Positions 719 to 32,000 of a stretch of DNA of 32,000 nucleotides are shown piece by piece; the stretch's first letter is position 1, and each line of letters starts with the position of its first letter. Under the pieces are notes generated by a model. That model was not told where the DNA came from and made no database searches. It saw only the letters and a list, made by a program, of their open reading frames with translations. The stretch covers positions 510,001-542,000 of the forward strand of contig CP012986.1 of the NCBI GenBank assembly GCA_001761425.1, given 5' to 3'. A program made the translations under genes and the position numbers. This DNA is from Candidatus Saccharimonadota bacterium (GTDB taxonomy: Archaea > Nanohalarchaeota > Nanosalinia > Nanosalinales > Nanosalinaceae).

Positions 719-2418
719 ACCCGGGAATGCAGAACTTAATAAAACGTCTACAAAGGCTAAAGCATCCAGAAAGATTCGAACAAAGGGAAGATGAGAGAGA
801 AGATAGCCCAGGAGTAAGTGTACCTATTCCAGGAGATTTCGATCCAGAAACAGTAGAACAGGAAAGTGAGGAGGAACAAAGTGAAGGCCTTGAGGATACA
901 GATATAACATATCCTTTGACTCCGACTGATCCTGCGGAAGGAGAAACGGTCTATGCATGGGCTCATATCACCTGGGACGAACAGGGAGAGGAACTTGTAT
1001 ACAGGGTTATAGAGCCTCAGAGAACGCCTAGGACAGATCAGATCCTTGATAAGATCAAAAATATTCTTGAGAGCAGTTTTGACGTTGATTTCAATGAACT
1101 TGCTACTGATGAGGCCCATGAATATCTTGAGGATAAAATTGATCATATTATAGACAAGTATGATATCTCTCTAAACGGTAAGGAACAGCAGATAATCCGA
1201 TACTATGCAAAGAGAGACTTTGTAGGCCTTGGCAAGCTTCAGCCGTTGATGAATGACACAGAGGTTGAGGATATTTCGTGTGACGGCCTTGATATACCTG
1301 TCTATGTTGATCACAGGAATCCGAAGTTTGGTTCGATCAAGACTTCGGTGATGTGGACGGAGGCCGAGGAGCTTAACAGTTTCGTGATGAAGATGGCTCA
1401 GAGATGCGGTAAATCAGTTTCTGTGGCCAATCCTTTGCTTGATGGTTCTCTTCCGGATGGATCACGTGTACAGGCGACACTTGCGACAGATATTGCCAGG
1501 AAGGGTTCGAACTTCACTATCAGAAGGTTTACAGAGGATCCTTTGACACCAGTCCATATGATGGATTTCGAGACAGAGAACGCCCAGTTACTCAGTTATC
1601 TCTGGTTTATGATTGAGCATGAGAAATCTACCTTGATCGCAGGTACTACGGGAGCAGGTAAGACTTCACAGCTCAACGCTTTGTCTCTGTTCATCAAGCC
1701 GGAGAAAAAGATCGTCTCAATTGAGGATACGCCGGAGCTCAGGCTTCCACATGATCACTGGGTGCCGGAAGTCGCAAGAAGTGGTTTCGGATCAAGTGCT
1801 GAAGAAGGCGGAGAAGTATCTCTTGATAACCTGTTGAAGGAGTCTCTGCGTCAGAGGCCTGAGTTTATCATTGTTGGTGAGGTCAGAGGTGAGGAGGCCT
1901 ATATCCTGTTCCAGCAGATGGCCACAGGGCATACAGGTATGTCGACGATCCACGCTGATTCTCTTGGCATGCTTATGGATCGTTTGACAACTAACCCGAT
2001 TGATCTTTCGCCGAGTCTTATCGAGACTCTGGATGTTGTGATGCTTATCTCGAGGATCCGCCGTGGAGATACGTATATCAGGAGGATCAAAGGGATATAT
2101 GAGATCCGGGATTATGATGAGAAGAGAGGCCTTCAGGCGAATAAGGTGTTTGGCTGGGATCCTGAGGAGGATGAGTACTACCAGGAGAATAATTCTCTTA
2201 TCCTGGATGATATCAAAGCTGAGAGTACAATGGATGAGGATGATATCCAGAAAGAGCTTGCGAACCGCCAGCTGGTCCTTAATTACATGCAGGATCAGCA
2301 GATTAAGAATTTCCAGGATGTTGGCGACGTGATTTCCCGGTATTACTATAATCCGGATCAGGTTCTCGGGGATATTGACCAAACATTTAATTCGGAAGAG
2401 AAGAATATCGATACATAG
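715..2418 (+). CDS. Type IV pilus/archaellum-family assembly ATPase (FlaI/PilB/EpdL/TadA-like, GspE-VirB11 superfamily)
   Basis: Walker A GTTGAGKTS, Walker B region EFIIVGEVRGEEA, His box TGHTGMSTIHA, N-domain YRVIEPQ motif typical of archaeal FlaI/PilB. Acidic N-terminal extension. GAGGT SD-like element 7 nt upstream. Confidence 0.9.
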   Translation: MNPGMQNLIKRLQRLKHPERFEQREDEREDSPGVSVPIPGDFDPETVEQESEEEQSEGLEDTDITYPLTPTDPAEGETVYAWAHITWDEQGEELVYRVIEPQRTPRTDQILDKIKNILESSFDVDFNELATDEAHEYLEDKIDHIIDKYDISLNGKEQQIIRYYAKRDFVGLGKLQPLMNDTEVEDISCDGLDIPVYVDHRNPKFGSIKTSVMWTEAEELNSFVMKMAQRCGKSVSVANPLLDGSLPDGSRVQATLATDIARKGSNFTIRRFTEDPLTPVHMMDFETENAQLLSYLWFMIEHEKSTLIAGTTGAGKTSQLNALSLFIKPEKKIVSIEDTPELRLPHDHWVPEVARSGFGSSAEEGGEVSLDNLLKESLRQRPEFIIVGEVRGEEAYILFQQMATGHTGMSTIHADSLGMLMDRLTTNPIDLSPSLIETLDVVMLISRIRRGDTYIRRIKGIYEIRDYDEKRGLQANKVFGWDPEEDEYYQENNSLILDDIKAESTMDEDDIQKELANRQLVLNYMQDQQIKNFQDVGDVISRYYYNPDQVLGDIDQTFNSEEKNIDT

Positions 2419-2421
2419 AAG

Positions 2422-3291
2422 ATGAAAAAATATGCTGACTTCTGCTATGATCAGGTAGGGTCCTACGCTCTCCAGATGCTGGACAGCTTTGAAGGCCTCA
2501 GACCACAGCTTACAAAGGCAGGTATACAGGTCTCCCTGCCTGAATACGTCAGCATGATGCTTTTCTCGTCTATAATCTCTGGTCTGGTCGGCACAGTGTT
2601 TTTGAGCGTCATCTTCATCCTGGAATCAGGAATTCCAGGCCTTATAATGGGTATCAGCTTCGGTGCTATGATTGGCGGAGGAACTTTCATAGGTTTCTAC
2701 CTGCTTCCATCCATCAAGATAAACAATAGAGGGGCGAAGATCGAAGATACTCTTCCATTCGCAGTTATGTATCTTTCAACGCTTGCAGGAACAGGTACAT
2801 CAGTAACAGAGATGTTTCGAAACCTTGCAGAGTCAGATGAGTACGATGAACTGGCGAGCGAAGCTGAGAAAATACATAGAGATATTGAATCCTTTGGAAT
2901 GGATATAGGAGAGGCCTTGACAAAGGGAGCAGAGCGTTCTCCAAGCGATGACCTTGAGGAAGTTCTCTGGGGTATGAACCATGTTATAACTACAGGAGGA
3001 TCTCTTAGAGAATTTCTGGATCAGAGAGCTACTTCTTTAATGGAGGATTACGAGAGAAGGATCGATGAGTTCTCTGAAAAGCTTTCACTGCTCGTTGAGA
3101 TGTATATTATACTTGTTATTGTCGGCTCAATTATCTTCACTTCTATGTCGGTCGTTGTAAGTGCTTTTGGAGGTATTGATCCAAGCCTGGTTATACTGAT
3201 TCAGGCCTTATCTGTGTTTGTTGGCTTACCCTTCATATCTGTAGGATTCATAATCCTGGTTGACGGCATCTCGCCGGGAGGTATTGACTGA
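2422..3291 (+). CDS. TadC/PilC/FlaJ-family polytopic membrane protein, first of two single-domain halves (EpdJ/K-like)
   Basis: TM segments flank one T2SSF-like helical cytoplasmic domain (LPFAVMYLSTLAGTGTS ... GGSLREFLDQRA). Lies immediately after the ATPase gene (3-nt gap). Confidence 0.75.
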   Translation: MKKYADFCYDQVGSYALQMLDSFEGLRPQLTKAGIQVSLPEYVSMMLFSSIISGLVGTVFLSVIFILESGIPGLIMGISFGAMIGGGTFIGFYLLPSIKINNRGAKIEDTLPFAVMYLSTLAGTGTSVTEMFRNLAESDEYDELASEAEKIHRDIESFGMDIGEALTKGAERSPSDDLEEVLWGMNHVITTGGSLREFLDQRATSLMEDYERRIDEFSEKLSLLVEMYIILVIVGSIIFTSMSVVVSAFGGIDPSLVILIQALSVFVGLPFISVGFIILVDGISPGGID

Positions 3292-4304
3292 TGGATCTGT
3301 TTGAGAATGATGGACCGGATAATGAATCAAAGAGAGATCAGATAATTAAATACTCCGCAGCGGCTGGAGCAAGCCTTGTGATGATAGGTATCTTGCTTTA
3401 TGTCGTAATTGGGCCTCAGGCAGGAGGTGCACTCATTATCCTGGGTGTTATCTCTTCTGTTGTACCTTATGGTGGTCTTTCTTTCCTGGAAAACCGCAGG
3501 ATTAAGGAGATGGAGGATCAGTTCCCGGCTTTCCTTAATGGTCTTGCTGAGTCGAAGAGAGGAGGTATGACACTTCTGGATGCATTTGAATCTGCTCACA
3601 ATACTGACTATGGCCGTTTGAACGATGAAATCGAACAGGTTTACAATGAGTTGAGCTGGGGTATACCGTTCCCTGAAGTGATGGAGAGATTCAGCCAGAG
3701 AGTCTCGGATTCTGCCGTGATGCAGAACTCTATATCTATCATTATCCAGAGTTTCAGAAGCGGAGGGAATATTACACATACTGTTGATGCTGTAGCAGAT
3801 GAAGCTGCCACCCTCAGGAATGTTGTGAAGCAGAAAAACTCTCAGCTTAAACAGCAGATGATGATAATGTATGTCATCTACCTGCTGTTCATAGGTATCA
3901 CTCTAGGCCTCTACATGATGCTTGACCAGCTTATGGGATTCGGTACTCAAGGAGGAGGAGCATTCTCCAACATAGGCGAACTTACAGGTTCAAGCCAGAA
4001 TATCAACTACTGTACTGGAAGCATACCGGCAGCACAGCCTTTTTGCCAGATCTCACAGGTATTTGGATTTATTCCGGAAGGCGTTGCACTGGGATCTGAA
4101 GAGGCCATAACTAACAGCTACGGTAAGATGGCATACTACAAATCCCTGCTGTTCACCATGCTCATGATTCAGGGAGTATCTACCTCAGCAGTAGCCGGCA
4201 AAATTACCTCAGGAAAAGCTGCTGCCGGGATCAAACACGCAATGATTATGATCCCGCTGGCCTTCATCGCCTTCATGACAATAGTCGCCCCAATAGGTGT
4301 ATAA
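3291..4304 (+). CDS. TadC/PilC/FlaJ-family polytopic membrane protein, second half
   Basis: One T2SSF-like domain (FPAFLNGLAESKRGGMTLLDAFE ... FRSGGNITHTVD) plus TM segments. GGGAGGT SD 8 nt upstream. Start overlaps the preceding stop (TGATG). Confidence 0.75.
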   Translation: MDLFENDGPDNESKRDQIIKYSAAAGASLVMIGILLYVVIGPQAGGALIILGVISSVVPYGGLSFLENRRIKEMEDQFPAFLNGLAESKRGGMTLLDAFESAHNTDYGRLNDEIEQVYNELSWGIPFPEVMERFSQRVSDSAVMQNSISIIIQSFRSGGNITHTVDAVADEAATLRNVVKQKNSQLKQQMMIMYVIYLLFIGITLGLYMMLDQLMGFGTQGGGAFSNIGELTGSSQNINYCTGSIPAAQPFCQISQVFGFIPEGVALGSEEAITNSYGKMAYYKSLLFTMLMIQGVSTSAVAGKITSGKAAAGIKHAMIMIPLAFIAFMTIVAPIGV

Positions 4305-4309
4305 ACCCA

Positions 4310-5143
4310 TTGAAAGGACAGGTAACAATAGAATTCCTTGCATCATTCTTCCTCTACATACTGGCAGTGGTAGCAGTATTCCAGTTCGTATCCAGCGGAA
4401 TCCCTGACTTCAACAACTCGATGAACCAGAAAACACTGCACTACGAAGCCAAATATGTATCAGACCAGATGCTGAAACAGCCAGGATACCACACAGAAGG
4501 CCTCGGAGGAACAAACTGGGAGAAAAACAGTTCAACCAGGAACTCCCTTAACAGCCTGGGCCTCGCATCAGAATACATGAAGATCGACCCGGATAAACTC
4601 GAACAGCTATCGACTGTAGGACAGTCCAAGGTAAATTACTCACAGTTCATAGATACTGTAGGAGTAGATAACCAGTACTATTTCAATTTCACGTGGACTC
4701 CGGTCGTGAAAACATACCAGAGCTTCTACAAGAGAGATCCGCCTACAGGCCTTACTGTCCCTGACCATGACTTGTACCAGAGGGCTAGAGGCAGGGTCCA
4801 TTACGGTAATGTAACTCTTAACGGAGAGACCAGGCATTTTCTTGTTACAGAACACAGAACCGGATACAACACCACCTATGTATCAGGAAACAGGGATTTC
4901 CAGAACTCGGATCCCAGAGGCCTTGATTCTACCGTCAGTTTCGGCGGGCAGATTTTCAAAGTATCAGGTTTTCAGAACATAAGATATCATAGAGGAGGCC
5001 TTGTTTTCCTGGAAAGTCATGTGAAAGGTTTTGGAAGTAGTCTTGACCGTTCAGAAGAAGTGGTCAAGTTCAACCGTTATCCTTCTTATGACGCCGATAA
5101 CTCAGATCTTATGCCTATGAGAGTGGAGGTGTATGTCACTTGA
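4310..5143 (+). CDS. Pilin-like protein with class III signal peptide, 277 aa, sequon-rich
   Basis: TTG start giving MKGQ/VTIEFLASFFLYILAVVAVF, with Glu at +5 after the putative G/Q cleavage. AGGTG 10 nt upstream. Six N-x-S/T sequons (NNS, NSS, NYS, NFT, NVT, NTT). Confidence 0.6.
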   Translation: MKGQVTIEFLASFFLYILAVVAVFQFVSSGIPDFNNSMNQKTLHYEAKYVSDQMLKQPGYHTEGLGGTNWEKNSSTRNSLNSLGLASEYMKIDPDKLEQLSTVGQSKVNYSQFIDTVGVDNQYYFNFTWTPVVKTYQSFYKRDPPTGLTVPDHDLYQRARGRVHYGNVTLNGETRHFLVTEHRTGYNTTYVSGNRDFQNSDPRGLDSTVSFGGQIFKVSGFQNIRYHRGGLVFLESHVKGFGSSLDRSEEVVKFNRYPSYDADNSDLMPMRVEVYVT

Positions 5144-6909: not shown

Positions 6910-7838
6910 AAGGACAGTTCATGATTATATCTGCAGTCCTTGTAAGCATCCTGCTGATGTCAACAGCCACTACAATGTCTGAAATCAGGGAAAGCGACTT
7001 CTCACCGATCGAGAAAGATTATCACGTCAACAGCATAGAACAGGTTGGAGAGAAACTTGATCTAGCGAAGAAAAGCGATCGGAAAGAATTCAGACAAACA
7101 GTAGACTACATATCCTCATACACAACAGACCTGACATTCTGGGAGGAAAGAAGATGTTACAACCTAACCCTGTCCAACACGGAAACAGAGACAAGGATAA
7201 CGTGTGCGGGAAACGGATCGGTCTTCCACGACTCATTCGAGGACGGAGAACACACAGACCCGCTCTGGATAAAAAGAGGACAGGACGGAAACATGCAGGT
7301 CATCACAGAATACTCGCCAAAAAACGGACAGAAGGCCCTGAAACTTCAGGAAAACGGACAGAACAGCACAAGCTTCAAGGCCCAGCTCCAGCAAAACTTC
7401 GACATCTGGGAACAGGCCTGGACAGCACAAGGCCTCTACAGGACAAACTCTATAGACAAGACAACAGCTCAGAGACATGAAATCATACTCAATGACAACC
7501 AGAACCATAACGACCAGATCCATGTACAGCTCGGTGTAGCTGACCACGGAGGAAATAATATCAGATTCAGGATCAAGAATGAAGGCCTGATAGACAATCC
7601 TGACAGTACAAACGTTAACTGGCAGGAAAACACCTGGTATGGCTGGAAGATAATACATGATGGCTCAGGAAATTATGATGGAAAAATATGGGAATACAGA
7701 AATGGAGAGCCACAGAACTCCGATATAACTGCCTCAGGAGACACATCTACAAACCCGGGAGCAGTATCCTACAGAATGAACGGTACGGCCGGAAGCAGTT
7801 TCCAGATAGCCCATGACTACCTCAAACTCGATAACTGA
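6897..7838 (+). CDS. Pilin-like protein with class III signal peptide and C-terminal beta-sandwich lectin-like (ConA/LamG-like) domain
   Basis: GTG start gives MAELKGQ/FMIISAVLVSILLM, keeping the K-G-Q motif shared by the other three; the ATG at 6921 would lose it. The C-terminal ~200 aa starts FHDSFEDG...W and contains NTWYGWKIIHDGSGNYDGKIWEY. Five sequons. Confidence 0.55.
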   Translation: MAELKGQFMIISAVLVSILLMSTATTMSEIRESDFSPIEKDYHVNSIEQVGEKLDLAKKSDRKEFRQTVDYISSYTTDLTFWEERRCYNLTLSNTETETRITCAGNGSVFHDSFEDGEHTDPLWIKRGQDGNMQVITEYSPKNGQKALKLQENGQNSTSFKAQLQQNFDIWEQAWTAQGLYRTNSIDKTTAQRHEIILNDNQNHNDQIHVQLGVADHGGNNIRFRIKNEGLIDNPDSTNVNWQENTWYGWKIIHDGSGNYDGKIWEYRNGEPQNSDITASGDTSTNPGAVSYRMNGTAGSSFQIAHDYLKLDN

Positions 7839-7918
7839 ACACCAAGTTTAGATGACAGAGAACAAGCCTTTTACAGCTAGTTCTGAAAGTCTCTGTCAAA
7901 GTTACTCCTCTAAAGGCC

Positions 7919-9106
7919 TTAAAACTTCTTCAGAAACTCTTTTTCTTTGTCTTCTAGTTCGAGAGAATCGGCGATTTCAGGCCTTTCTCTGAAAAGATTT
8001 GCGTAGAGCGGAAGATCGTTCTTTACATCTTTCTTCGACATGTGGAGTTTCTCGCCCATCTTGGATGAGATGCTGTCCAGCTTCTGGCGTGAAGCTCTTG
8101 ACTGTCCCATCTGCCTGATCTTCGAAGGGTACTGGTACTTGGTCCAGCCTTTGTATTTCTCCTCTTTCGCCAGGGCTACTCCGATAGTGGAGAAGTCATA
8201 GACATATTTGAGAAGTTTCCAGTTCATCCGTCTTCTTATTCTCCCATTGAACAGGTCGGCTTTAGAGATCCAGTCGTACGCATGTGAGAGATCTTCAGGC
8301 CTCTTGTACTCGCGTGGGATGTTTTCCCTTATCCACTGGACCATGGTGTCCGCGTCTTCGTCTAGGTTCTCCGTCGCCTGGCTGGCATTGGAGAGGTTCT
8401 TCGTCTTGAAAATAATCTTTAGTGAATCAAAGATCTCCTGACGGTTATCCCGCTGACCGATAACATCCATATCATCTTTTGTGATCTGTTCTTTTCCGCG
8501 GGCGATAGCCTCTAAATCGTTTATCGCTGAACGCATCTGTCCCCCGGCCTGACGCGCTATCCTCTTTGGAACGCCGTCCTCGTAGTCAACGCTTTCTTCA
8601 TCAAGTATATCACGCAGAAAAGCTGCGATAGAGTTAGTATGTACCGAACCAAGCTCTATGCTTTTCGATTTATTCCTTAAGGAGCGGATACTGTTATCAT
8701 AAGCGTCGTTCGCAGTCATAACGATAGGGAAACGGGTCTCATCGACGATAGTACCGATCTCCTTGACCCCTCCTCTATCGCTGTTACCGGACATGCCATC
8801 CACTTCGTCTATAAGTATGAGTTTCCTGCCTCCGTAAAACGAGGCCTGACGCGTCGCCTCCTTCAACTCCTCCTTGAGCTTTGACTTTGTCCGGACATCA
8901 GAAGCATTTGTCTCAACCAGCTCGTAGCCAAGATCATTAGCCAGGGCCTGAACCAGTGAAGTCTTACCTGTACCGGCCTGACCATGGAGAAGAACAGCTT
9001 TATCTCCCTGCTCCCAGTTTTCAACATGTTTCTTCAAATCCTTTTTCTCGCTGGAAGCACCACGGTACTCCGACAAACTCTCAGGCCTGTACTTCTCAGT
9101 CCACAT
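7919..9106 (-). CDS. rfcL: Replication factor C large subunit
   Basis: MWTEKYRPESL N-terminus, Walker A GQAGTGKTS, Walker B LILIDEVD, archaeal RFC-L architecture. Lies 15 nt downstream of rfcS. Confidence 0.9.
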   Translation of the reverse strand: MWTEKYRPESLSEYRGASSEKKDLKKHVENWEQGDKAVLLHGQAGTGKTSLVQALANDLGYELVETNASDVRTKSKLKEELKEATRQASFYGGRKLILIDEVDGMSGNSDRGGVKEIGTIVDETRFPIVMTANDAYDNSIRSLRNKSKSIELGSVHTNSIAAFLRDILDEESVDYEDGVPKRIARQAGGQMRSAINDLEAIARGKEQITKDDMDVIGQRDNRQEIFDSLKIIFKTKNLSNASQATENLDEDADTMVQWIRENIPREYKRPEDLSHAYDWISKADLFNGRIRRRMNWKLLKYVYDFSTIGVALAKEEKYKGWTKYQYPSKIRQMGQSRASRQKLDSISSKMGEKLHMSKKDVKNDLPLYANLFRERPEIADSLELEDKEKEFLKKF

Positions 9107-10072: not shown

Positions 10073-10138
10073 CTATTAACCACCTCGAAATCAATCATAG
10101 AATTTAATCTCCTCCTGAAACTGAAAGGCCTCTACAAT

Positions 10139-10686: not shown

Positions 10687-10727
10687 CAGGCTTCTGGCCC
10701 GTCAGAGGCCTGCTTTGAACATTTTTT
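10687..10727. terminator. Hairpin plus T-tract between the convergent Fap7-like and thioredoxin genes
   Basis: caggcttctg (10687-10696) pairs with cagaggcctg (10703-10712): 10 bp with one G-U, 6-nt loop, followed by TTTTTT at 10722-10727. Confidence 0.35.
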
Positions 10728-11193: not shown

Positions 11194-11214
11194 GGGAGAG
11201 GCCTCCTGAAGATC

Positions 11215-16708: not shown

Positions 16709-18388
16709 ATGCTGGAGCCAGTGATCCAACAACTCAGTAATTTCTTCCTGAATCCTCTAGGTCTCGCAGCACTTCTAGGCCTTGTACCACTTGTGATTTT
16801 CTACCTGGTAAGGCCTTCACCTGAGGAAAAAGTCATGCCTTCCATGAAGTTCTTCCAGAAAGATAAAAAGAGCGGAAGACTCCAGAAAGCTTTGAAAGTC
16901 CTTCAGCGAAACATGATGCTTCTTCTACATGTACTTATGGTAGCAGGACTTGCAGCAGGGATTGCAAACCCGTACATCATGGGTGAACAGAGACCTGAAA
17001 ATGCTGTAATCGTTATAGATAACTCTGCAAGCATGAAACCGGTTTTTGACCAGGTTAAACAGGAAGCGACCTCTCAGGCAGGACGAAGTAACACTGTAAT
17101 AGTTGCGAACGATGAGACAGAGATCGCGTTAGAGAAAGCATCACTTTCCGAAACTCAAAGATTTATTAGAGGCCTTGAAGTCGAAGAAACCGGGACAAAC
17201 ATCGTAAGAGCTGTGCAGAGAGCTGGGAACTACGAAGGGAAAGTCTTTCTGGCCACAGACTTTCAGCAGACAGCGGAGACAGATACTGATATCAAAGATC
17301 TAGTGAAAACAGTTTCTACTTCAAGGCCTCTTCAGACTTTTGACCCGACCAAAAGCAATGAATGGGGTATTGTAGATCTCGAGATCGATGGGGAAAATGC
17401 TACAGCGTTCATACAGAATTTCAGGGATCAGAGGGCAAGTATCAATGTTGAAGTTGGAGATGGCTCACGCAGTCTGGATCTGAAAGCTGGAGAACTGAGA
17501 AGACTATCCTTTACGCTTCAAAAAGGTAAAAATACTTTATCCCTAGAAGAAGACGGTTTTGAAATCGATAACACAGCACGTATTTACAGGCCTTCAGATG
17601 ATGATACCAGAGTAGCTGTCGTTGATAATGAAAAAAACAGATATCTGATGAAGGCCTTAGATCTTGTAGAAAATGTAGATCCTGTCTATGTGAGGCCTTC
17701 AGAGTCTCTTCCCCGGTCTGATGTCTATATACTGGGAAGAATGGACTCTCTACAGGAAGTAGATACACAGAAGATGGTCTCAGAACTTAAACAGGGTAAA
17801 GGCCTTGTACTTTATGCTCAGAGCGGTGCAGAGGATATATCCTCAGAATTACCTGTCAGCTCTACTGGAGAGGCCTTTAATTCTTCCGTAGAGGTCTCAG
17901 AGCCTGTCGAAATCGAGACAGGTAATATCAGTTTACTGGAATCGGCAGTTGATGGAGAATCAGTTTCAACTCCGAAGGAGGCTCTACAGTTTGCCGATGT
18001 AGGTGACGGAGAGTTTGTTTACTTCAACTTTGGGTCTCAGGAGTTCAGGGAGAGCCTGGACTACCCGGTATTCTGGAAACAAGTTGTAGAGAGAGCAGCT
18101 GGAAGGCCTTCAGCACAGGATCTGAATCTGGAAACAGGTTCCACAGTACTGGCGGAGGAAAAGACTATTGAGATAACGGAAACAGGGTTCCAGGAACTTG
18201 ATGGAAAGATGTACGCTTCAAATCTTCTGAACGGTGAAGAATCAAGGTTTGAAAGCTTTGAGATAGAGCATAGCTCAGCTGAGGCGGTTAAACAGCCTCA
18301 GAGCTTTCAGGCCTTACCTGTGCTACTGATAATTGTTCTTGGACTGTTTGAGATGGCTTATCTCTACAGGAGAGGTGAGATACCTTGA
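16709..18388 (+). CDS. BatA_N-type double-TM plus von Willebrand factor A domain membrane protein
   Basis: N-terminus FFLNPLGLAALLGLVPLVIFYLVRP...MPSMKFF (aerotolerance BatA N-terminal pattern). MIDAS VIVIDNSAS ... TGT ... LATD. C-terminal TM LPVLLIIVLGLFEMAYLY. Confidence 0.65.
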   Translation: MLEPVIQQLSNFFLNPLGLAALLGLVPLVIFYLVRPSPEEKVMPSMKFFQKDKKSGRLQKALKVLQRNMMLLLHVLMVAGLAAGIANPYIMGEQRPENAVIVIDNSASMKPVFDQVKQEATSQAGRSNTVIVANDETEIALEKASLSETQRFIRGLEVEETGTNIVRAVQRAGNYEGKVFLATDFQQTAETDTDIKDLVKTVSTSRPLQTFDPTKSNEWGIVDLEIDGENATAFIQNFRDQRASINVEVGDGSRSLDLKAGELRRLSFTLQKGKNTLSLEEDGFEIDNTARIYRPSDDDTRVAVVDNEKNRYLMKALDLVENVDPVYVRPSESLPRSDVYILGRMDSLQEVDTQKMVSELKQGKGLVLYAQSGAEDISSELPVSSTGEAFNSSVEVSEPVEIETGNISLLESAVDGESVSTPKEALQFADVGDGEFVYFNFGSQEFRESLDYPVFWKQVVERAAGRPSAQDLNLETGSTVLAEEKTIEITETGFQELDGKMYASNLLNGEESRFESFEIEHSSAEAVKQPQSFQALPVLLIIVLGLFEMAYLYRRGEIP

Positions 18389-20718
18389 AAGAGGTGTTTT
18401 ACTTCCAGGAGCCTGTGGCGCTTCTGGCAGGTCTGGTAGCTTTCTCAGGAGTTTATATTTTCCTGAAGGCCTCTGGAAGAGAGGGCAGGATCGTCGGTTT
18501 CACAAGGACTCTGTTTTTCCTGTTACTGGCTATCTCTCTGGCAGGGCCTTTTCTTCAGGATTCAAGGATGGTCGAGGATCAGCAGGATCTTTTCGTACTG
18601 GAGGATAGCTCCCGATCCTCTGAGCTGCTGGAAAACACTTCTCTGGATGCAGAAAACGTGGATATCCGGCGTAAAACTGTACTTACCGGTAATAACTCCA
18701 AGTTGGCTTCTGCTCTCAAATCGGAGCTAAGGCCTGATTCCACCTATCTGTTGATGAGCGATGGCAGGAGTTCTGAGGATCTCGAAAACGTTCTCAGGAA
18801 ATACAGAGATGAGAACTCGACGATTTCAGTCCTTAAACCGGAGATGGAAACAGAAAGATCTGTACATGTCTCAGGGCCTTCCACCACTGTTCCTGGAGCT
18901 GCTACAAAGTTCACAGTGGACATAGATTCTACAGAACAGGATGAGGTCCCGGTGAAAGTTACTCTGGATAATAAAACTGTTCTGGACAGTTCTGTAAGTG
19001 GTTCATGGAGTTTTAACAGGTCCTTCAGCTCTGAAGGGGTTCACAGGATCAGTGCAGAGATAGAGAGCGACGACAGGTTCTCAGGAAACAACAGGTACTA
19101 CAAGACTGTCAAAGTTGAGGAGAAACCGGAGATACTCTACATCGGAGCTGAATCCGAACTCAGCGATAAACTCTCACAGTTCTACAGAGTCACAGTCCTT
19201 CAAGAAATCCCCGATGATCTCTCCGACTACTATACTACTGTATCAACCAGAAAACTCGATGAAGAAAGAATACAGGATTATATAACGAAGGGAAACGGCT
19301 ATCTCTACCTTGGAGATTACAGCGAACCCGCGAGACATTTACCGCTGAAGGCCTCGAACGAGAACTATAACGATGAAAGCACCAGGATGGTCATGCCGAT
19401 ACAGGTGCCTTTCAAATCCACTAACGTTACGTACACCAAAAATACTGCGGGAAGTATCGTGAAGGCCTTGCCGGGAAACACCAAGTTTGGAGGCATCTAC
19501 TATTCGACGACAGCGGACTACCTGACGACGGGAGGTACTGCCCTGTTCCCCCGGCAGGTAAGTCGGACTAACAAGATGGTGACGCTGGGCGGAGGCTCAG
19601 GCAACAGGGAACAGACTATTCAAAACATAAGACAGCTTGACAGGTCCACCTACAAGAGACATGACGTGGCGCTGAAGGCCTCACAGGATCTTCTGGGCGA
19701 CGAAGGCAACATCATACTTGTGACCAACGGAGATATAGTTGATACTACTACTGTCCCCAATCATGAGGGAAAGACTGCGGAGGAGATCAGGGCAGCAGCC
19801 CTGGACCAGGCTAGAGGCCTTGACTCGGATATCGATCTTTACGCGGTCAGGACAGGGCCTCTACCTGAAGAAGCAGAGGATATTGAGGACATTGACAGAA
19901 GTGAAGTGATCGAGAACAGGGATTTCATGCAGAGCCTGGCAGACGCAGCACCGAGTGCCAGGAGCAACTACTACAACATAGATGAACTTAACCAGCTCTC
20001 AAGACTCGAACTGGGAGCAGGAGGAGGGACCTCAGCCTTCAAACCGATCGGCGTTATAGACGAAGACCACTTTATCACCGAAGGAGTCAGACTCAGGACG
20101 GAAATCTCAGAGTTCAACGAGGTAAGGCCTAAACCTTCTTCCGATGTCCTCGTCTCAGGACCACAGAAGAGAGAGTTCCTCACAGCCTGGAACTACGGTC
20201 TAGGAAGAGTAGCAGCATTCTCCGGAGACCAAGGAGCGCTGGAAAGAACACTTGACGCTGATCCAGGCCTTGTCTCCCGAACAGCAAGCTGGACGATAGG
20301 AAATACTGACAGAAAAGAGGAAAGATGGCTGAAAATCTCTGAAACTGAAGCACCGACAGAAGCAGAGGTCACAGCATCCTATCAGGTACAGGGCCTTACA
20401 TACAGATCTGAAAACCGGTACACGGGAAGCATCAAACCTGAGAGCAAAGGATTTCACAGCTTTGCCGGAGAAAACTACAGCTACAACTACAACTCTGAAA
20501 TAAGAGAAATAGGGTACAGAGACGAGGCCTTGAGAAAGATAGCATCGGAGACAGGTGGAGAGGTCTATACTACTTCCGAGCTTGAAAGCACAGAGTTCGG
20601 AGGCTCACAGATGAAGGAGGTTAGTTACAGCAGGCCTCTATCCGGTTACTTCCTTGTCGCTGCGATGTTTGTCTTGCTTTCGGAGATCGGTTACAGAAAG
20701 TTAAACGGGAAGAAATAA
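18385..20718 (+). CDS. BatA_N-like membrane-anchored surface protein with vWA-like, CARDB/Ig-like and GATase1-like regions
   Basis: TTG start overlapping the upstream stop (TTGA), with GAGGTGA SD at 18372-18378, 6 nt upstream. LEDSSRS MIDAS-like motif. CARDB-like stretch TKFTVDID...VHRISAEIESDDRFSGNNRYYKTVKV. WNYGLGRVAAFSGD motif. C-terminal TM. Confidence 0.6.
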   Translation: MKEVFYFQEPVALLAGLVAFSGVYIFLKASGREGRIVGFTRTLFFLLLAISLAGPFLQDSRMVEDQQDLFVLEDSSRSSELLENTSLDAENVDIRRKTVLTGNNSKLASALKSELRPDSTYLLMSDGRSSEDLENVLRKYRDENSTISVLKPEMETERSVHVSGPSTTVPGAATKFTVDIDSTEQDEVPVKVTLDNKTVLDSSVSGSWSFNRSFSSEGVHRISAEIESDDRFSGNNRYYKTVKVEEKPEILYIGAESELSDKLSQFYRVTVLQEIPDDLSDYYTTVSTRKLDEERIQDYITKGNGYLYLGDYSEPARHLPLKASNENYNDESTRMVMPIQVPFKSTNVTYTKNTAGSIVKALPGNTKFGGIYYSTTADYLTTGGTALFPRQVSRTNKMVTLGGGSGNREQTIQNIRQLDRSTYKRHDVALKASQDLLGDEGNIILVTNGDIVDTTTVPNHEGKTAEEIRAAALDQARGLDSDIDLYAVRTGPLPEEAEDIEDIDRSEVIENRDFMQSLADAAPSARSNYYNIDELNQLSRLELGAGGGTSAFKPIGVIDEDHFITEGVRLRTEISEFNEVRPKPSSDVLVSGPQKREFLTAWNYGLGRVAAFSGDQGALERTLDADPGLVSRTASWTIGNTDRKEERWLKISETEAPTEAEVTASYQVQGLTYRSENRYTGSIKPESKGFHSFAGENYSYNYNSEIREIGYRDEALRKIASETGGEVYTTSELESTEFGGSQMKEVSYSRPLSGYFLVAAMFVLLSEIGYRKLNGKK

Positions 20719-20744: not shown

Positions 20745-20766
20745 CAGGCCTTCTAATCTTTTGGTT

Positions 20767-21510
20767 ATGGGAGCTTTCGATAAAATAAAGGATTCTATAC
20801 CCGGTACCGGTTCTTCTGACAGTTCCTCCTCGGATTTCGATGGAGGGGACTTCGACAGTTCATTTGATGACGGAGGCGGAGGCCTTGACATGGATGATTC
20901 TGGAGGTTCTGTCAACACAGGTGGAGGAGGGGGACCGTCGCTCGGAGGTTCTCAAGGCCCTCAAAGCAATCCAGGCTCTCAGGGAGGTCCTGGAGTTTCT
21001 TCGGGATCGAATGATTCTCTTCCAGGGAAGCCCACAGAAGGACAATCCCAGGGAAACGGTCCTGGCTCAGCCCCTGCCGGAAATGGCAATAGTTTAGGAG
21101 GAAACTCTCCCGGTCAAGGCGGAAATCCGCCGGGTCAAGGGGCTTCAGGTAATTCTGGAGGTCTCGGCGGCGGTTCTGGAGGCCCTTCTGGTGGTCCTGG
21201 TCTTTCAGATAATCAGAATCCTTCTCAGGGTGATGCAGGTCCTCAGGCTTCTCGGGGAAGCCCTAATCCTCAGTCTGGGAGGCCTTCTGGTAGCGGTCAG
21301 CCTCAGTTGAGTTCCTCTACGAAGGAGAAGATGAGGAAGGCTGGTATGAATCCTGACTCTCCTCCTGGGGGATCGGGTCCTTCCGGCGGTGGAAGGCCTG
21401 GTTCTGGAGGTAGGCAGAGTGTTGCTGCTTCACGTGATGATATGGAGGAGTTGAAATCTCAGAATGAAAAGATTATAGAGCTTCTGAAGCGTCTGAATCA
21501 GAAGATGTAG
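20767..21510 (+). CDS. Low-complexity Gly/Ser/Pro/Asn/Gln-rich, probably disordered protein with short structured termini
   Basis: ATG at 20767 (MGAFDKIKDSIPG) lies about 26 nt downstream of a TTTATTTA TATA-like box. About 200 aa of G/S/P/N/Q repeats. C-terminal helix DMEELKSQNEKIIELLKRLNQKM. Confidence 0.5.
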   Translation: MGAFDKIKDSIPGTGSSDSSSSDFDGGDFDSSFDDGGGGLDMDDSGGSVNTGGGGGPSLGGSQGPQSNPGSQGGPGVSSGSNDSLPGKPTEGQSQGNGPGSAPAGNGNSLGGNSPGQGGNPPGQGASGNSGGLGGGSGGPSGGPGLSDNQNPSQGDAGPQASRGSPNPQSGRPSGSGQPQLSSSTKEKMRKAGMNPDSPPGGSGPSGGGRPGSGGRQSVAASRDDMEELKSQNEKIIELLKRLNQKM

Positions 21511-22374: not shown

Positions 22375-23121
22375 TCAAGGCCTTCCAAAGATCGAAACAG
22401 CGTTCTCTGTTGAGGCCTCAATAACCTCGTCCTTCTCCAGATCCTTGATTTCAGCGATCTTCTCCGCGGACTCGATGACGTTCACGGGAGAATTTCTCTC
22501 ACCTCTGTAGAGAAAAGGCGAATCAGTTTCCAGCAAAATATCTTCCACGCTGACAGCCTCGACTATCTCCTGAACCCTGTTCGAATACAGAACCTGTGTC
22601 GTGATACCTACTGTCATCTCTTCCCGTACAGCCTTTTCAGCTAGCTCCGGCTTGCCGTTGAAACAGTGAAGCATCACATCAGGAAGACTGTACTCCTTCA
22701 AAATACTGAAGGCCTTTCTCTCGGCGTCTCTGCTGTGTACAACGACAGGAAGATCAAGTTCCTCAGCTATTTCAAGCATCTCCCGGAAAACTTCTTCCTG
22801 TCTCTTCCTCATCTTATTTTCGGAGACGTGATGGTGATCAAGGCCTATCTCGCCTACAGCAGGAGGCATTTCACTCTTTATCTGTTCCTTGATATCATTC
22901 AACTGGTCGAAGCTTTCGGTATACGTTGGATGAAGGCCTAGATTCGGCACTACGAAATCCTGGTGTTTTCTGCTTAGTTCCAGGACTTCCTCATTATTTT
23001 CCAGGTTGGATCCTGCATCAATTATGAACTCCAGTCTATCCTTTGCCTCCTTAATTACTTCTTCTCTGTCATCGCTGTAATGTTCGAAGTCAATATGGCA
23101 GTGAGCGTCTACAGGCCTCAT
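22375..23121 (-). CDS. tatD: TatD-family metal-dependent hydrolase/DNase
   Basis: VDAHCHIDF, GEIGLDHH, VVVHSRDAE, MLHCFNG, LLETDSPF motifs. Confidence 0.9.
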   Translation of the reverse strand: MRPVDAHCHIDFEHYSDDREEVIKEAKDRLEFIIDAGSNLENNEEVLELSRKHQDFVVPNLGLHPTYTESFDQLNDIKEQIKSEMPPAVGEIGLDHHHVSENKMRKRQEEVFREMLEIAEELDLPVVVHSRDAERKAFSILKEYSLPDVMLHCFNGKPELAEKAVREEMTVGITTQVLYSNRVQEIVEAVSVEDILLETDSPFLYRGERNSPVNVIESAEKIAEIKDLEKDEVIEASTENAVSIFGRP

Positions 23122-23250
23122 AAAACATGTTTAGAGGCCTACGGTTAAAAACTGTGCACTCGGAGGTAGCGATGTTCTGCGTCACATATTTCCTTAAATA
23201 CTTGATAGATCAAAACTTTTCCCGGGGATTGAATGTGAGGGGGATTTGGT

Positions 23251-23367: not shown

Positions 23368-23394
23368 AATGAGTTAAAGAGAAACCCGAAGGCC

Positions 23395-23413
23395 TTTTTT
23401 CTCCAGATTTTTT
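23395..23413 (+). terminator. Two T6 tracts downstream of the candidate small zinc-ribbon ORF
   Basis: TTTTTT at 23395-23400 and 23408-23413 on the plus strand, just after an AAGGCCTT palindrome. Confidence 0.3.
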
Positions 23414-26700: not shown

Positions 26701-26710
26701 ATAGGCCTTC

Positions 26711-26730: not shown

Positions 26731-27393
26731 ATGTTTTCCATGATAGCGGCGGAGGCCTTGATCCAGCTTATTCAGCAGTACGGTGTTCTCGCTGTTATCT
26801 TCGGCGTTGTTATCGAGGAGATTGTTGTTCCGATTCCTTCGCCGGTCGTGCCGATGGCAGCTGGTTTTATCGTTGTTCAGGCTACTTCTCTGCCTCAGGC
26901 CTTGCTTGAGATAATTTTTCTGGTTGTTATCCCGGCTTCACTGGCTTCTGTGGTCAGTTCGTATTTTGTCTACGGTATAGCTTATTTCGGCGGTAAACCT
27001 GTGCTTGAGAGGTATGGTTACTACCTGGATGTTTCCTGGGAGGAGGCTAGGGAGCTGGAGGAGAAATTTGCTTCGGGGAAACAGCATTACTACGTCGCAC
27101 TTTTCAGGGCTATTCCCGTAGTGCCGCTTTCACTTGTCTCAGGATCAGCAGGCCTTTTCAGGATGGACTGGAAAAAGTACGGTCTCTGGACACTCATCGG
27201 TATGGTCCCAAGGACTTTCTTCCTCGCCCTCGCAGGATGGTACCTGAAAGACGGCTTCGTAACTGTCGCTTCTTATATCGATAACCTCTCAACTCTCATA
27301 CTACTGGCGACAGGAGGCCTTGTAGGAGCTTATCTTTTCTACAGAAAATATGGAAATATCTACAGGAAACTGCTTTTCTCGGACCGGATCTAA
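26731..27393 (+). CDS. DedA/VTT-domain family membrane protein
   Basis: GVVIEEIVVPIPSPVVPMAAGF and FRAIPVVPLSLVSGSAG motifs. The true start may be the second ATG at 26740, which is 25 nt from a TTAAAAATA box. Confidence 0.8.
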   Translation: MFSMIAAEALIQLIQQYGVLAVIFGVVIEEIVVPIPSPVVPMAAGFIVVQATSLPQALLEIIFLVVIPASLASVVSSYFVYGIAYFGGKPVLERYGYYLDVSWEEARELEEKFASGKQHYYVALFRAIPVVPLSLVSGSAGLFRMDWKKYGLWTLIGMVPRTFFLALAGWYLKDGFVTVASYIDNLSTLILLATGGLVGAYLFYRKYGNIYRKLLFSDRI

Positions 27394-29802: not shown

Positions 29803-31044
29803 TTATCTGATTCTGTAACGAAGTATGCCGGCTACTCCTCCCATGTTGAGAAGTCTCTGGCCTTCTTCGTGGCCGTCTCCGATGATCTCAAGTTCTGTGC
29901 CCATTTCCTCAGCCTTTTCTCCGAATGCGTCAACTATATCGCTGATATCTTCCAGCTTCATTTCCTCGTTGCATTCACCGCATTTTACAGAGTCGGAGAT
30001 AAGGGCCTCTTCCTCAAAAATCTCTTTTTCATGGCCTTTTGGACATTGGTAAGTAGCTTCAAACATGTCAACGTTTTCAGAGATCAAAAGCGTGTCAACA
30101 GCTCCCATCTTCAAGGCCTTGTATACTGGTTCGACTCCGTATTCGCTTTTGCCGTTTTCCTCCTTCAGGTTTGTGAAGAATTCGTTGACAAGATTTTTTT
30201 CATGGACTACCTGAGAGTCCTCGATAGCGTCTTCAGCTTTTGAAACAAGTTCCTCCAAGGCCTCTTCACCTGAGTAGTTCAGTGATTCTATGTCTACGAT
30301 CTCGTCTTCCAGTTCCTGGTGGATGTAGCCATCGTCGACAAGTTTGTCTTTTACGAATCCTGGGCCTCCGATAATGATTCCCAGAAGCTCTCCGTCTCTT
30401 GCTTTGTCCATGAAAGCGCTTTTTGCTTTCTCAGCGATTTCCTGGAGGAAAGTTTTCAGCATCTGTTTTCTTAAACGTGCGAATCGCTGAGCTGACTGTC
30501 CTCCAGCCCTTGTCTTACCGGGAACGTTTGATTCAAGCGTAAACGCGGTCTTGACGCTGTTCCCCCGAAGATAGCCGATCGCAGCACTGTTTTTGTCTGT
30601 CACGATCAATCCGTAGACTCTGTCGTCTACGACCATCTGCCTGAGAGGGTCCAGAACAAATTCTTTGTCACATCTGTAGTGACGGGATTCGATAGTCTGG
30701 GGAGGCACTACTTCCCATATCTTGATATCAGGCCTTCCCTCGGTATCGGAGACGTTTCCGGCGAAGAAGGCTACACCGTTTTCCGGCGTTTCATGCTCCT
30801 CGGAAACTTTCCTGCCTATCTTGCCGAGAGCGTCCTGAACGTTCGTCCTGGTATGTTTGGACTTGATGTTTTCCGCTTCGGACTGTTCGGAAGTAACGAA
30901 CTCTGAGATCTTGGACATATCATAACCGGCAGGAATGTACAGGGATACAAGCTCCGTGTTTCTCCCCCGGATATCCTCTAGCTCGTTGATGAGCTTCTTT
31001 AGCTCGTACTTGGACATTTCCTCAGGTTTTTCGTTTTCGCTCAT
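29803..31044 (-). CDS. prf1: Peptide chain release factor aRF1
   Basis: NIKS motif (AENIKSKH), GGQ motif (TRAGGQSAQRFARL), three-domain length. CPKGH...CGEC mini zinc-knuckle in the C-domain. Confidence 0.95.
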   Translation of the reverse strand: MSENEKPEEMSKYELKKLINELEDIRGRNTELVSLYIPAGYDMSKISEFVTSEQSEAENIKSKHTRTNVQDALGKIGRKVSEEHETPENGVAFFAGNVSDTEGRPDIKIWEVVPPQTIESRHYRCDKEFVLDPLRQMVVDDRVYGLIVTDKNSAAIGYLRGNSVKTAFTLESNVPGKTRAGGQSAQRFARLRKQMLKTFLQEIAEKAKSAFMDKARDGELLGIIIGGPGFVKDKLVDDGYIHQELEDEIVDIESLNYSGEEALEELVSKAEDAIEDSQVVHEKNLVNEFFTNLKEENGKSEYGVEPVYKALKMGAVDTLLISENVDMFEATYQCPKGHEKEIFEEEALISDSVKCGECNEEMKLEDISDIVDAFGEKAEEMGTELEIIGDGHEEGQRLLNMGGVAGILRYRIR

Positions 31045-31069: not shown

Positions 31070-31822
31070 TTAATTGTCTCCGGCGAAGGCCTCCTCTATC
31101 TTCTCCTTTGACAGCAGCATGTAATCCTGGTCCGAAGTAAAAAGCTCCAGGCACATTGTACCGTCAAAATTTTCCAGCTTCGAGAAAAAGGCCTGGAAAT
31201 CCACCTGTGCCGAACCGATCGGAAGATGAAGATCTTCGTTCTCACGGGTGTCCTGGGCATGGATATGCGAGATTTTTTCTCCCTCGTTTTCCAGGAAAGT
31301 CTCTGTGATCTCCTGACCTGCCTCGGCAAAACCGTGGCCGGTATCAAAGCACATTGAGGCCTCCACTTTTTCTATGATCTCGGCCAGGTCAAACATTTCC
31401 AGGGTATCGAATTGGCCGACGTTTTCAAATACCATTTCGATATCTTTTTCCTCGCCAAGGGCCTTCAGCTTCTTTATCTGCTGTTCAAGGATAACCTGTT
31501 GGCGTTTTGATTCTTCATCTCTCATGTTGGGATGTATGACAGCTTTTTCCGTCTCAAGCTCTGCGGAGAACTCCAGAAGCCTTTCGAAGTAACTTATCAA
31601 GGCCTTGTTAAGTTCTTCGACTCCTGTAGCTACTGGCTGGCGGAAAGGAAGATGGACTATAAGGTAGAAGTTTTTCTCGTCCAGGATTTTCCTTAGATTC
31701 TTTTGATCGATGTCTTCAGGTCTTATCTCTTTTTCTCCTATCGCCAGCTCCACGAAGTCGAATTCTTCTGGAACCTCCTTGATTTTCTCTGGTGCTGGGC
31801 CTACGCTTACTCCGTAATCCAT
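31070..31822 (-). CDS. Xylose-isomerase-like TIM-barrel protein (sugar phosphate isomerase/epimerase, AP-endonuclease-2 fold)
   Basis: Motif series VHLPF, VIHPN, VFENV, CFDTGH, HIHAQD typical of this fold. Specific function not assignable. Confidence 0.65.
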   Translation of the reverse strand: MDYGVSVGPAPEKIKEVPEEFDFVELAIGEKEIRPEDIDQKNLRKILDEKNFYLIVHLPFRQPVATGVEELNKALISYFERLLEFSAELETEKAVIHPNMRDEESKRQQVILEQQIKKLKALGEEKDIEMVFENVGQFDTLEMFDLAEIIEKVEASMCFDTGHGFAEAGQEITETFLENEGEKISHIHAQDTRENEDLHLPIGSAQVDFQAFFSKLENFDGTMCLELFTSDQDYMLLSKEKIEEAFAGDN

Positions 31823-31825
31823 TTT

Positions 31826-32000
31826 TCAGGCCTCCTGGATGATTACCAGCGTGTTCTCTGTCTCGATCATCTTTCCTTCTCCTGTGTAGGTTCTTTCTTC
31901 TTCGACCTCGAACATTTCAGGCTTGAGATGTTCTCCTGCGACATCCAGATGTCCTGCTTCAATTGTGTACTCGTTGTTCTCCAGAGCTTCCTCGATTTCT
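31826..32000 (-). CDS. C-terminal 58 codons of an unidentified protein continuing beyond the window
   Basis: Open minus-strand frame from 32000 down to TGA (31826-31828): ...EIEEALENNEYTIEAGHLDVAGEHLKPEMFEVEEERTYTGEGKMIETENTLVIIQEA. Acidic composition matches the real genes. 3-nt gap to the next gene. Confidence 0.3.
   Translation of the reverse strand, partial: EIEEALENNEYTIEAGHLDVAGEHLKPEMFEVEEERTYTGEGKMIETENTLVIIQEA

Follow-up and report, generated by a model that had tools for sequence, protein, structure and literature searches.

AGGCCT, a palindrome abundant throughout several nanohaloarchaeal clades, as a candidate HIP-type element

The palindromic hexamer AGGCCT is present 132 times in a 32,000-nucleotide stretch of the genome of Nanohaloarchaea archaeon SG9 ("Ca. 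Nanopetramus"; contig CP012986.1, positions 510,001 to 542,000, locus tags AQV86_02760-02835), which we refer to as the window and whose coordinates are used throughout. This is a 15- to 20-fold excess. SG9 originates from Atacama halite and has a genome of 1.1 Mb (bioRxiv 10.1101/029934), and the gene content of the window is archaeal (aRF1, archaeal S-adenosylmethionine (SAM) synthetase, replication factor C (RFC) subunits and an Lhr helicase). We tentatively propose, at somewhat less than even confidence and partly by analogy, that AGGCCT is an element of the highly iterated palindrome (HIP) type. Its reader may be a protein that recognises AGGCCT specifically as a dimer, with a persistent methyltransferase the most plausible candidate, and the sites may be kept either because a dense mark is weakly selected or through a transmission bias.

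Base composition predicts 6.7 copies of AGGCCT in the window and dinucleotide frequencies predict 8.4-8.6. None of 100 dinucleotide shuffles reached 132 (standard deviation 3.2, maximum 20), and AGGCCT ranks first among the 4096 hexamers of the window. A preliminary description of the same DNA, in which the sites were counted by eye, had arrived at about 130 sites, or about one per 240 bp, with roughly 6 expected, and both figures agree with the exact count, the mean spacing of 236 bp and the expectation from base composition. Its estimates for the flank variants were close as well (about 12, 8 and 29, with exact counts of 14 for AGGCCA and TGGCCT, 8 for CGGCCT and AGGCCG, and 31 for AGGCCC and GGGCCT). 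The density is unchanged in the adjoining 18 kb of the genome, giving 210 sites in 50.3 kb in total (4.17/kb), so the elevation that the description had wanted to see beyond the window extends at least that far.

The Markov expectation for AGGCCT climbs with order (24, 66 and 119.5 for orders 2, 3 and 4). At maximal order it formally approaches the observed count, an outcome that the preliminary description had named as a refutation. However, when the 132 sites are masked, GGCC (78 versus 74 expected), AGGCC (21 versus 24.5) and GGCCT (32 versus 25) lie at expectation, and AGGC and GCCT are likewise at their low-order expectation. The maximal-order value is therefore circular and does not refute the enrichment. 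The enriched unit is the whole hexamer, and the excess of its sub-words is its product. A longer motif was considered as the enriched unit and rejected: the octamer AAGGCCTT occurs 28 times versus 32 expected from independent flanks, without extra excess, and the flank information is weak. An origin from repeats or mobile elements was also rejected, the sites being isolated hexamers within conserved genes.

AGGCCT falls in codon phases 0, 1 and 2 at 30, 43 and 48 sites, respectively, in genes of both strands, and its density is 4.7/kb outside open reading frames (ORFs) versus 3.8/kb in coding DNA. Shuffling of synonymous codons, with proteins and codon usage kept, yielded 16.6 +/- 3.7 sites versus the 120 observed in coding DNA. 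These results bear out several statements of the preliminary description: the three examples it gave for the codon phases (Table 1) are all correct, the motif does occur in genes of both strands and at the intergenic positions that it listed, it is not confined to one phase, and no single dipeptide or codon pair explains it. We conclude that the enrichment acts at the DNA level, independently of frame, and does not stem from coding needs.

Within the window, AGGCCT is realised at 120 of the 155 amino acid contexts that permit it (77%), namely at 30 of 33 R-P, 42 of 57 [KEQ]-A-[FLSYCW] and 48 of 65 x-G-L contexts (74% for the last). Across 32 nanohaloarchaeal species this realised fraction is bimodal, with 63-80% in enriched genomes and 0-12% in the others, apart from three at 21-37%, including two non-enriched genomes at 21-22%. 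The permissive contexts themselves differ in frequency, with 14.5-17.4 per 1000 codons in enriched versus mostly 5-13 in non-enriched genomes (15.4 versus about 8). For 25 of 39 window sites, at most 20% of the non-enriched orthologues have a compatible amino acid context. In the syntenic, non-enriched locus L200, which has one AGGCCT in 20.9 kb, only 15 of the 58 SG9 site positions are compatible and 43 are incompatible, and none of the 43 permissive contexts of its own is used for AGGCCT. The bias is strong enough to have altered protein sequences, and peptides able to carry the word have approximately doubled. The odds of AGGCCT at a permissive position are about 40-fold higher in enriched than in non-enriched genomes, which under a mutation-bias equilibrium would translate into a scaled coefficient of about 3.7, a strength comparable to that of strong codon bias. 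A baseline of about 0.2/kb multiplied by 40 would roughly predict the density in non-coding DNA, and one uniform bias may cover all sequence classes.

We compared the surroundings of aRF1 from GTDB species and metagenomes. The pooled loci contain 1020 AGGCCT in 262 kb of enriched versus 65 in 347 kb of non-enriched sequence, and their densities are either 2.3-5.2/kb or 0-0.6/kb, with few intermediates. A comparison with relatives, suggested in the preliminary description, thereby separates three enriched clades from the remaining lineages. In a neighbour-joining tree of aRF1, these three clades consist of enriched members only and have 100% bootstrap support each, with non-enriched lineages between them. 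Clade A comprises SG9, L177, L155 and L001; clade B comprises Nanosalina sp. VS9-1 (NZ_CP180230.1), L158 and L008; and clade C comprises eight loci from soda-lake and other brines. Nha-R1 belongs to the non-enriched genomes. Partial loci were placed consistently with this picture. The lineages adjoining clade C have 1.4, 1.05 and 0.4 sites/kb, and their orthologous positions deviate at one to three letters by changes of every type, the pattern expected if AGGCCT is decaying or has not built up fully. The enrichment is inherited by whole clades.

In some lineages the core GGCC is nearly absent (among L006, L013, L187, L182, L200 and L201, at aRF1 or Lhr loci; 6 and 9 per 21 kb, 2 in 3.2 kb), and AGGCCT in these GGCC-avoiding lineages amounts to 0-1 in 15-21 kb. 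The near-absence suggests that a GGCC-directed restriction pressure probably circulates in the nanohaloarchaeal community. A scan of IMG/VR for a three-site pattern yielded no nanohaloarchaeal virus; most of what it retrieved were tandem repeats and chance clusters. One viral contig of 46.8% GC (L138, contig IMGVR_UViG) carries tandem units of about 73 bp at positions 6700-8430, each with the double site AGGCCTAGGCCT; it has no detectable similarity to nanohaloarchaeal loci.

AGGCCT is retained about three times better than ordinary hexamers. Between SG9 and L177 (78.6% nucleotide identity), 77% of sites are shared versus 26% for any hexamer. Nine other genome pairs gave similar ratios of site to hexamer conservation (2.5-4x), and at 65-83% nucleotide identity site sharing was 0.40-0.84 versus 0.11-0.35 for arbitrary hexamers in the same alignments. 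The value of 0.77 for SG9 and L177 equals the equilibrium occupancy of contexts, which would fit a stationary global pressure rather than site-specific functions.

Closer relatives of SG9, strain X (L191, L194, L196 and L198) and strain Y (L199), were retrieved by exact protein sequence. At least three SG9-like strain lineages, 1.6-2.0% apart and with a transition:transversion ratio of about 4:1, are present in metagenome samples other than the source of SG9. Over 42 kb, SG9 and strain X have 10 alignable site differences, 5 of them sites found only in SG9 and 5 found only in X (for polymorphic sites within the window see Table 1). Single-nucleotide polymorphisms within sites numbered 11 versus 19 expected from the average density (P = 0.035), and synonymous transitions within sites numbered 7 versus 10.5 expected (0.67 of the neutral rate, not significant). 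Since synonymous transitions in sites are near the control level, mutations in sites are not prevented. They arise and are lost or replaced later, and turnover is near-neutral between close strains. Indel junctions between strains, when checked against AGGCCT, did not coincide with sites but fell elsewhere, and cleavage at AGGCCT in vivo was rejected on these grounds. SG9 further differs from strain X by a 133-bp tandem duplication at about 1320-1450 of locus L192, 8 kb to the left of the window, in a segment with two AGGCCT.

The substitution pattern differs between the two time scales. AGGCCT is about 21 times denser in enriched genomes than in their non-enriched relatives, and the only one-off variant enriched along with it is GGGCCT/AGGCCC (5.3x), the other eight variant classes lying at 0.7-1.7x. 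Words that would result from deamination, for which the preliminary description had suggested a test of depletion, are slightly low in the same comparison (AAGCCT/AGGCTT 0.85x, AGACCT/AGGTCT 0.78x), but this is no marked depletion beside a 21-fold target. Over the long term, the outer transition GGGCCT/AGGCCC accounts for 42 of 123 one-off orthologous partners and 42 of 83 transitions. Single steps between strains, in contrast, led to AGACCT/AGGTCT in six cases, AAGCCT/AGGCTT in three and GGGCCT in one, so that 9 of 10 are inner-position C-to-T or G-to-A changes (P = 0.018 for the difference in inner and outer positions between the two time scales, Fisher's exact test). Among other palindromes, CGCGCG and GCGCGC were found 0 and 1 times in the 262 kb of enriched and 5 and 3 times in the 347 kb of non-enriched loci, and GGGCCC and CTTAAG are rare in both alike.

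The flanks of the window sites carry at most 0.28 bit of information per position and form no extended repeat. At sites outside ORFs, position -3 is T in 48% and position +3 is A in 47% of cases (background about 27%), and T is disfavoured at -1, as is A at +1. This symmetric flank suggests that duplex DNA is recognised by a symmetric dimer across about 12 bp. Neighbouring AGGCCT sites repel each other below about 60 bp. Their spacing is more even than Poisson (pooled coefficient of variation (CV) 0.83), with deficits below 60 bp and above twice the mean, and, given the protein sequence, permissive contexts lying 6-40 bp from another site are used in 41-62% of cases and those farther than 100 bp away in about 79% (P = 5e-6). 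Random assignment gave 131.9 +/- 5.9 spacings below 60 bp versus the 101 observed, a number as low as this occurring in 0 of 500 simulations.

Under the proposal of a HIP-type element, AGGCCT would be a short dyad-symmetric word favoured chromosome-wide by a uniform, weak and persistent bias at the DNA level. To judge from the palindrome and the T(-3)/A(+3) flank, a dimeric sequence-specific protein would read it as duplex. By analogy with cyanobacterial HIP, the likeliest reader may be a persistent, probably orphan, StuI-type AGGCCT methyltransferase or a factor recognising its mark. The bias would act after mutation, at the population level, either through selection for a dense, even mark or through a preference for marked DNA in exchange or recombination, and would not work by very-short-patch (VSP) repair blocking mutations. 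The bias prefers the whole hexamer to any alternative, applies alike to synonymous, replacement and non-coding positions and has diminishing returns at short range.

Several points weigh against this proposal. The AGGCCT-specific methyltransferase, Vsr or orphan methylase for which the preliminary description had suggested a search did not come to light: no methyltransferase, restriction enzyme or Vsr was found in 50 kb of SG9 and about 260 kb of enriched relatives (genome size 1.1 Mb). Genomes with a restriction system normally avoid its site. The methylation step is drawn by analogy with HIP, and all sequence-level results could be accounted for just as well by a DNA-binding protein that does not methylate or by an uptake receptor. 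The tree, a neighbour-joining tree of the single gene aRF1, does not fix the number of gains and losses, and the pooled statistics draw on related genomes that are not fully independent. Finally, in the sole nanohaloarchaeal methylome found in the searchable literature, that of Ca. Nanohalococcus occultus, the only methylated motif is GDGCHC, a depleted site (PMC10266531).

When all window proteins were scanned with Pfam, NCBIfam and PADLOC, no candidate for a reader enzyme emerged either, and no MutS/L gene was seen in the DNA examined. Candidates from motif scans of all nanohaloarchaeal loci were rejected as false positives (cysteine desulfurase, surface proteins), and the best 120 matches listed for an M.HaeIII query were swamped by bacterial homologues. 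A 299-amino-acid protein (13079-13978) with a faint PADLOC match to REase_II was rejected as a restriction enzyme; the match is spurious, and the protein, which spans the membrane several times, occurs in a non-enriched genome as well.

Two hypotheses of the preliminary description, a dimeric DNA-binding protein or orphan methylase and an analogue of uptake sequences, are compatible with these data, because even spacing, symmetric flanks, clade inheritance and protein reshaping fit either. According to the latter, AGGCCT would be an uptake or self-recognition sequence comparable to the uptake signal sequence (USS) and DNA uptake sequence (DUS). DNA carrying it would be preferentially taken up, spared or recombined during DNA exchange among nanohaloarchaeal cells or when these separate their own DNA from imported host DNA, and alleles that acquire the word would spread by molecular drive, with or without methylation. 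We regard this as unlikely. The proteome signature is USS-like, with encoded peptides about doubled and sites at poorly conserved residues (cf. PMC2817400). The spacing is more even than random, as for USS, the trait is clade-specific, and unsuppressed mutational input with balanced turnover is what a population-level transmission bias would lead one to expect. Import of host DNA has been proposed for the nanohaloarchaeal group (PMC6642349), and methylated HIP1 raises cyanobacterial transformation more than 100-fold (bioRxiv 10.1101/2024.09.10.611283). The window also has a type-IV-pilus-like operon, but this operon is shared with the non-enriched L200. AGGCCT is palindromic and 6 bp long versus 9-12 bp for the asymmetric uptake sequences, its specificity against host DNA of 65% GC would be only about 10-fold, and one word in three separated clades would demand a common receptor. 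To our knowledge, sequence-specific DNA uptake is not known in archaea. A further-reaching version, in which AGGCCT would be the first archaeal self-DNA tag, methylated or receptor-read, for accepting, sparing or recombining DNA of its own kind as opposed to imported host DNA, and would have spread by molecular drive, appears quite unlikely to us.

AGGCCT could also mark an array of binding sites for an abundant dimeric nucleoid or architectural protein, without methylation, with selection holding about one site per 240 bp; we consider this rather unlikely. The palindrome has a symmetric T(-3)/A(+3) flank that reaches past the hexamer, the repulsion below 40-60 bp is on the scale of a protein footprint, long gaps are scarce, and the placement in some promoters is fixed at -17/-19. 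A function in nucleoid structure has been argued for HIP1 (PMC5861425). On the other hand, no candidate binding protein was identified, and selection would need to maintain some 4,600 sites, each of them weak, in a small symbiont genome. The co-enrichment of RGGCCY and the strict GGCC core are as reminiscent of an enzyme's specificity as of binding.

A drive by repair before fixation seems improbable. It could take the form of VSP-type T:G correction together with an m5C methylase, the first hypothesis of the preliminary description, or of Elhai's methyl-directed mismatch-repair ratchet, in which mutations creating a methylatable site are preserved and those destroying one are reverted. Inner-core one-off variants do not build up over the long term (0.78-0.85x) while outer ones do (5.3x), and the inner changes that dominate between strains (9 of 10) would fit a methylcytosine hotspot. 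In Methanothermobacter, a GGCC methylase is paired with the T:G glycosylase Mig.Mth. Saturation and even spacing are predicted by the ratchet model (PMC4390886). However, a drive restricted to T:G mismatches would draw on two neighbour words and should deplete them for a modest gain, whereas here the target is raised about 21-fold with the neighbours almost intact and all six positions are held. The rate of synonymous transitions in sites indicates that mutations are not blocked at their source, and neither Vsr nor MutS/L was seen in the DNA examined. In addition, both NGGCCN methylations that we found described modify the second C, and one of them is typed as m4C; N4-methylcytosine would not create T:G mismatches. 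This is the mark of the Moorella enzyme, GGGCC(m4C)C (PMC6700114), while the AgGCcT mark of A. borkumensis is reported only as cytosine methylation of the second C on both strands (PMC12128166). We therefore disfavour the VSP hypothesis.

There is next to no chance that the pattern is a by-product of amino acid, codon or oligonucleotide composition or an assembly artefact: AGG, CCT, GCC and GGC are fairly common codons and the maximal-order Markov value lies near the count, but the synonymous shuffle, the masking and a non-coding DNA enriched at least as much refute composition, codon and dipeptide explanations, sister lineages of equal GC content and proteome style lack the enrichment, and the pattern recurs in more than 20 independent assemblies from several metagenome and metagenome-assembled genome projects (soda-lake brine, halite and others).

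The individual sites referred to above and several outside coding DNA are collected in Table 1.

Table 1. AGGCCT sites of the SG9 window discussed in the text (X and Y, related strains)
Feature	Coordinates	Strand	Remarks
Dispersed array of 132 isolated AGGCCT hexamers	885..31833	.	Mean spacing 236 bp, range 16-814 bp, CV about 0.71-0.72
Phase-2 example, GAA-GGC-CTT (E-G-L)	885..890	+	Inside PilB-like ATPase gene 715-2418
Phase-0 example, AGG-CCT (R-P)	1855..1860	+	
Phase-1 example, GAG-GCC-TAT (E-A-Y)	1895..1900	+	
Outer-position polymorphism	4558..4563	.	SG9 GGGCCT, X AGGCCT
Site overlapping a stop codon and the following non-coding DNA	7914..7919	.	RFC large-subunit gene (7919-9106, minus)
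Intergenic site	10706..10711	.	Between two convergent genes
Intergenic site	11199..11204	.	Thioredoxin gene to MscS-like gene
Site lost in SG9	16759..16764	.	Inner C-to-T / G-to-A; SG9 AGGTCT, X and Y AGGCCT
Site gained in SG9	17871..17876	.	SG9 AGGCCT, X and Y AGGCTT-type
Site lost in Y	18467..18472	.	SG9 and X AGGCCT, Y AGGTCT
Promoter-region site	20746..20751	.	15 nt 5' of start 20761, directly downstream of TTTATTTAC (TATA-like) box
Site lost in X	21394..21399	.	SG9 and Y AGGCCT, two changes in X
Site lost in X	22378..22383	.	SG9 and Y AGGCCT, X AGACCT
TatD promoter site	23135..23140	.	Start 23121, minus; 19 nt before ATG, after TTTTTAACC box
Intergenic site	23390..23395	.	Downstream of SAM synthetase gene
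Intergenic site	26703..26708	.	3 nt past stop codon, 28 nt ahead of next start
Polymorphic site	26753..26758	.	SG9 AGGCCT, X AGGTCT
Polymorphic site	30258..30263	.	SG9 AGGCCT, X AAGCCT; within aRF1 gene
Polymorphic site	31718..31723	.	SG9 AGGTCT, X AGGCCT
Site upstream of a gene start	31828..31833	.	11 nt upstream of AP-endonuclease-2-family gene start (31822, minus)

A metagene profile gave no localisation of AGGCCT to gene ends and is flat except for a small peak at -17/-19 before start codons. Among 225 genes of 15 enriched loci, the distance from the first letter of the word to the start codon is precisely 17 nt in 10 cases and 19 nt in 5, directly downstream of a TTTAWA-like box; several of these are orthologous promoters, which leaves about 8 independent cases. 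The TatD promoter site is shared with the orthologous promoters in L177 and L001. Promoters could simply tolerate AGGCCT at this position, or the word could be put to regulatory use. A long ORF at 9872-10657, overlapping the RFC small-subunit gene, arises artefactually from a TTG start too far upstream. The gene called there encodes a 162-amino-acid AAA_18 kinase-like protein, so that the sites at 10126, 10279 and 10568 are coding rather than intergenic.

Regarding neighbouring genes, the type-IV-pilus-like operon (302-7838) comprises a DUF7266 protein, the PilB-like ATPase, two PilC-like membrane proteins, a DUF7287 protein and two proteins of unknown function, and it is syntenic in L200. The stop codon of the gene for the 299-amino-acid membrane protein overlaps the start of the Lhr helicase gene. 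Its homologues number only 23 in a set of 5.8 billion proteins, and those few for which an organism is named are all nanohaloarchaeal. The Lhr-type helicase (13975-16659) scores strongly against the defence models DpdJ (E = 3e-138) and BrxHI, which probably reflects shared Lhr ancestry and not a role in defence.

Research on hyperabundant palindromes goes back 30 years and has dealt almost exclusively with cyanobacteria; it is still under dispute whether selection favours them or repair generates them as a by-product. In the searchable literature we found no paper that ties AGGCCT to nanohaloarchaea or reports its over-representation in any archaeon, and the searchable papers on SG9 or on nanohaloarchaeal methylomes do not mention it. 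The nanohaloarchaea offer natural contrasts that cyanobacteria do not, namely three enriched clades, intermediates, non-enriched sisters, GGCC-avoiders and strains 1.8% apart, and comparative genomics could therefore pinpoint the responsible protein. Selection, biased repair and transmission drive could be told apart with population data from time series of halite metagenomes. The present example further illustrates that a DNA word of 6 bp can rewrite a measurable share of the proteome in a symbiont genome of 1.1 Mb, and AGGCCT provides a simple compositional marker for binning enriched lineages. If the word is linked to DNA exchange or to discrimination of self from host, it would bear on how obligate symbionts handle host DNA.

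Among known systems, Chi and KOPS/FtsK are also based on frequent short words with a role at the chromosome level, but these are asymmetric and strand-skewed. The preliminary description had called such a role unlikely for a palindrome, which cannot carry polarity, and we regard it as excluded. At the Dcm sites (CCWGG) of E. coli, VSP repair produces a bias of less than about 2-fold and a clear depletion of the words with T for C. The likeness lies in a methylase target raised by repair bias; here, however, the excess is about 20-fold and the T-for-C words stand at 0.78-0.85x, so that the combination of a modest target excess with marked depletion is absent.

Restriction-modification systems of the StuI/Eco147I type read AGGCCT and show that dimeric enzymes of exactly this specificity exist. 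Their relatives read GGGCCC, which could explain the co-enrichment of RGGCCY. These are defence systems in genomes without enrichment, as in A. borkumensis SK2 with 1674 AGGCCT genome-wide (PMC12128166). An active restriction partner would select against some 4,600 sites, and whereas type II systems have their own site avoided or at expectation, AGGCCT is enriched about 20-fold. Persistent orphan methyltransferases are common in archaea, for example the m4C CTAG methylase of Halobacteria (PMC10609329). As in our proposal, a short palindrome is methylated throughout a clade, the methylation is passed on vertically and it serves a purpose other than defence. The target words of these enzymes, however, are not over-represented (CTAG is depleted), and that survey included only one nanohaloarchaeal genome.

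The USS of Pasteurellaceae and DUS of Neisseriaceae resemble AGGCCT in being present in thousands of copies, doubling tripeptides, lying at poorly conserved residues and being clade-specific (PMC2817400, PMC1939737), and their accumulation can be explained by a drive at the population level. Even spacing of USS, as cited in PMC1939737, is a further parallel. AGGCCT shares the doubled peptides at poorly conserved residues. It differs as a 6-bp palindrome from these asymmetric sequences of 9-12 bp, which have a core with flanking consensus, occur about once per kb and are bound by a known uptake machinery.

The closest counterpart is HIP of cyanobacteria, which includes HIP1 (GCGATCGC) and the alternate 6-mer HIPs GGCGCC, GCCGGC and GCsGC (PMC4390886, PMC5861425). 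Like AGGCCT, with its at least 15-fold excess, these are GC-rich palindromes that are over-represented, 15- to 300-fold in the case of HIP, at a density of roughly one per kb or higher, in every reading frame as well as outside coding DNA. They are a clade-level trait with sporadic exceptions, their sites are conserved above background and spaced non-randomly, and their one-off variants concentrate at the outer positions, as Elhai saw for HIP1 (PMC4390886). Alternate HIPs co-occur with a cognate methyltransferase (PMC4390886), and the abundance of HIP1 correlates with a DNA-transfer apparatus. The cognate methyltransferase defines the association for HIP, whereas for AGGCCT it would be an analogy. 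The evenness differs as well, HIP1 having a periodicity of 10-90 kb and AGGCCT a short-range repulsion (in 50 kb of contiguous sequence). AGGCCT is another word in other organisms, reaches 4/kb versus about 1/kb for a typical HIP and nearly saturates the synonymous opportunities. We therefore view it as a new, independent case of a hyperabundant palindrome, outside cyanobacteria, in DPANN archaea and denser than HIP1.

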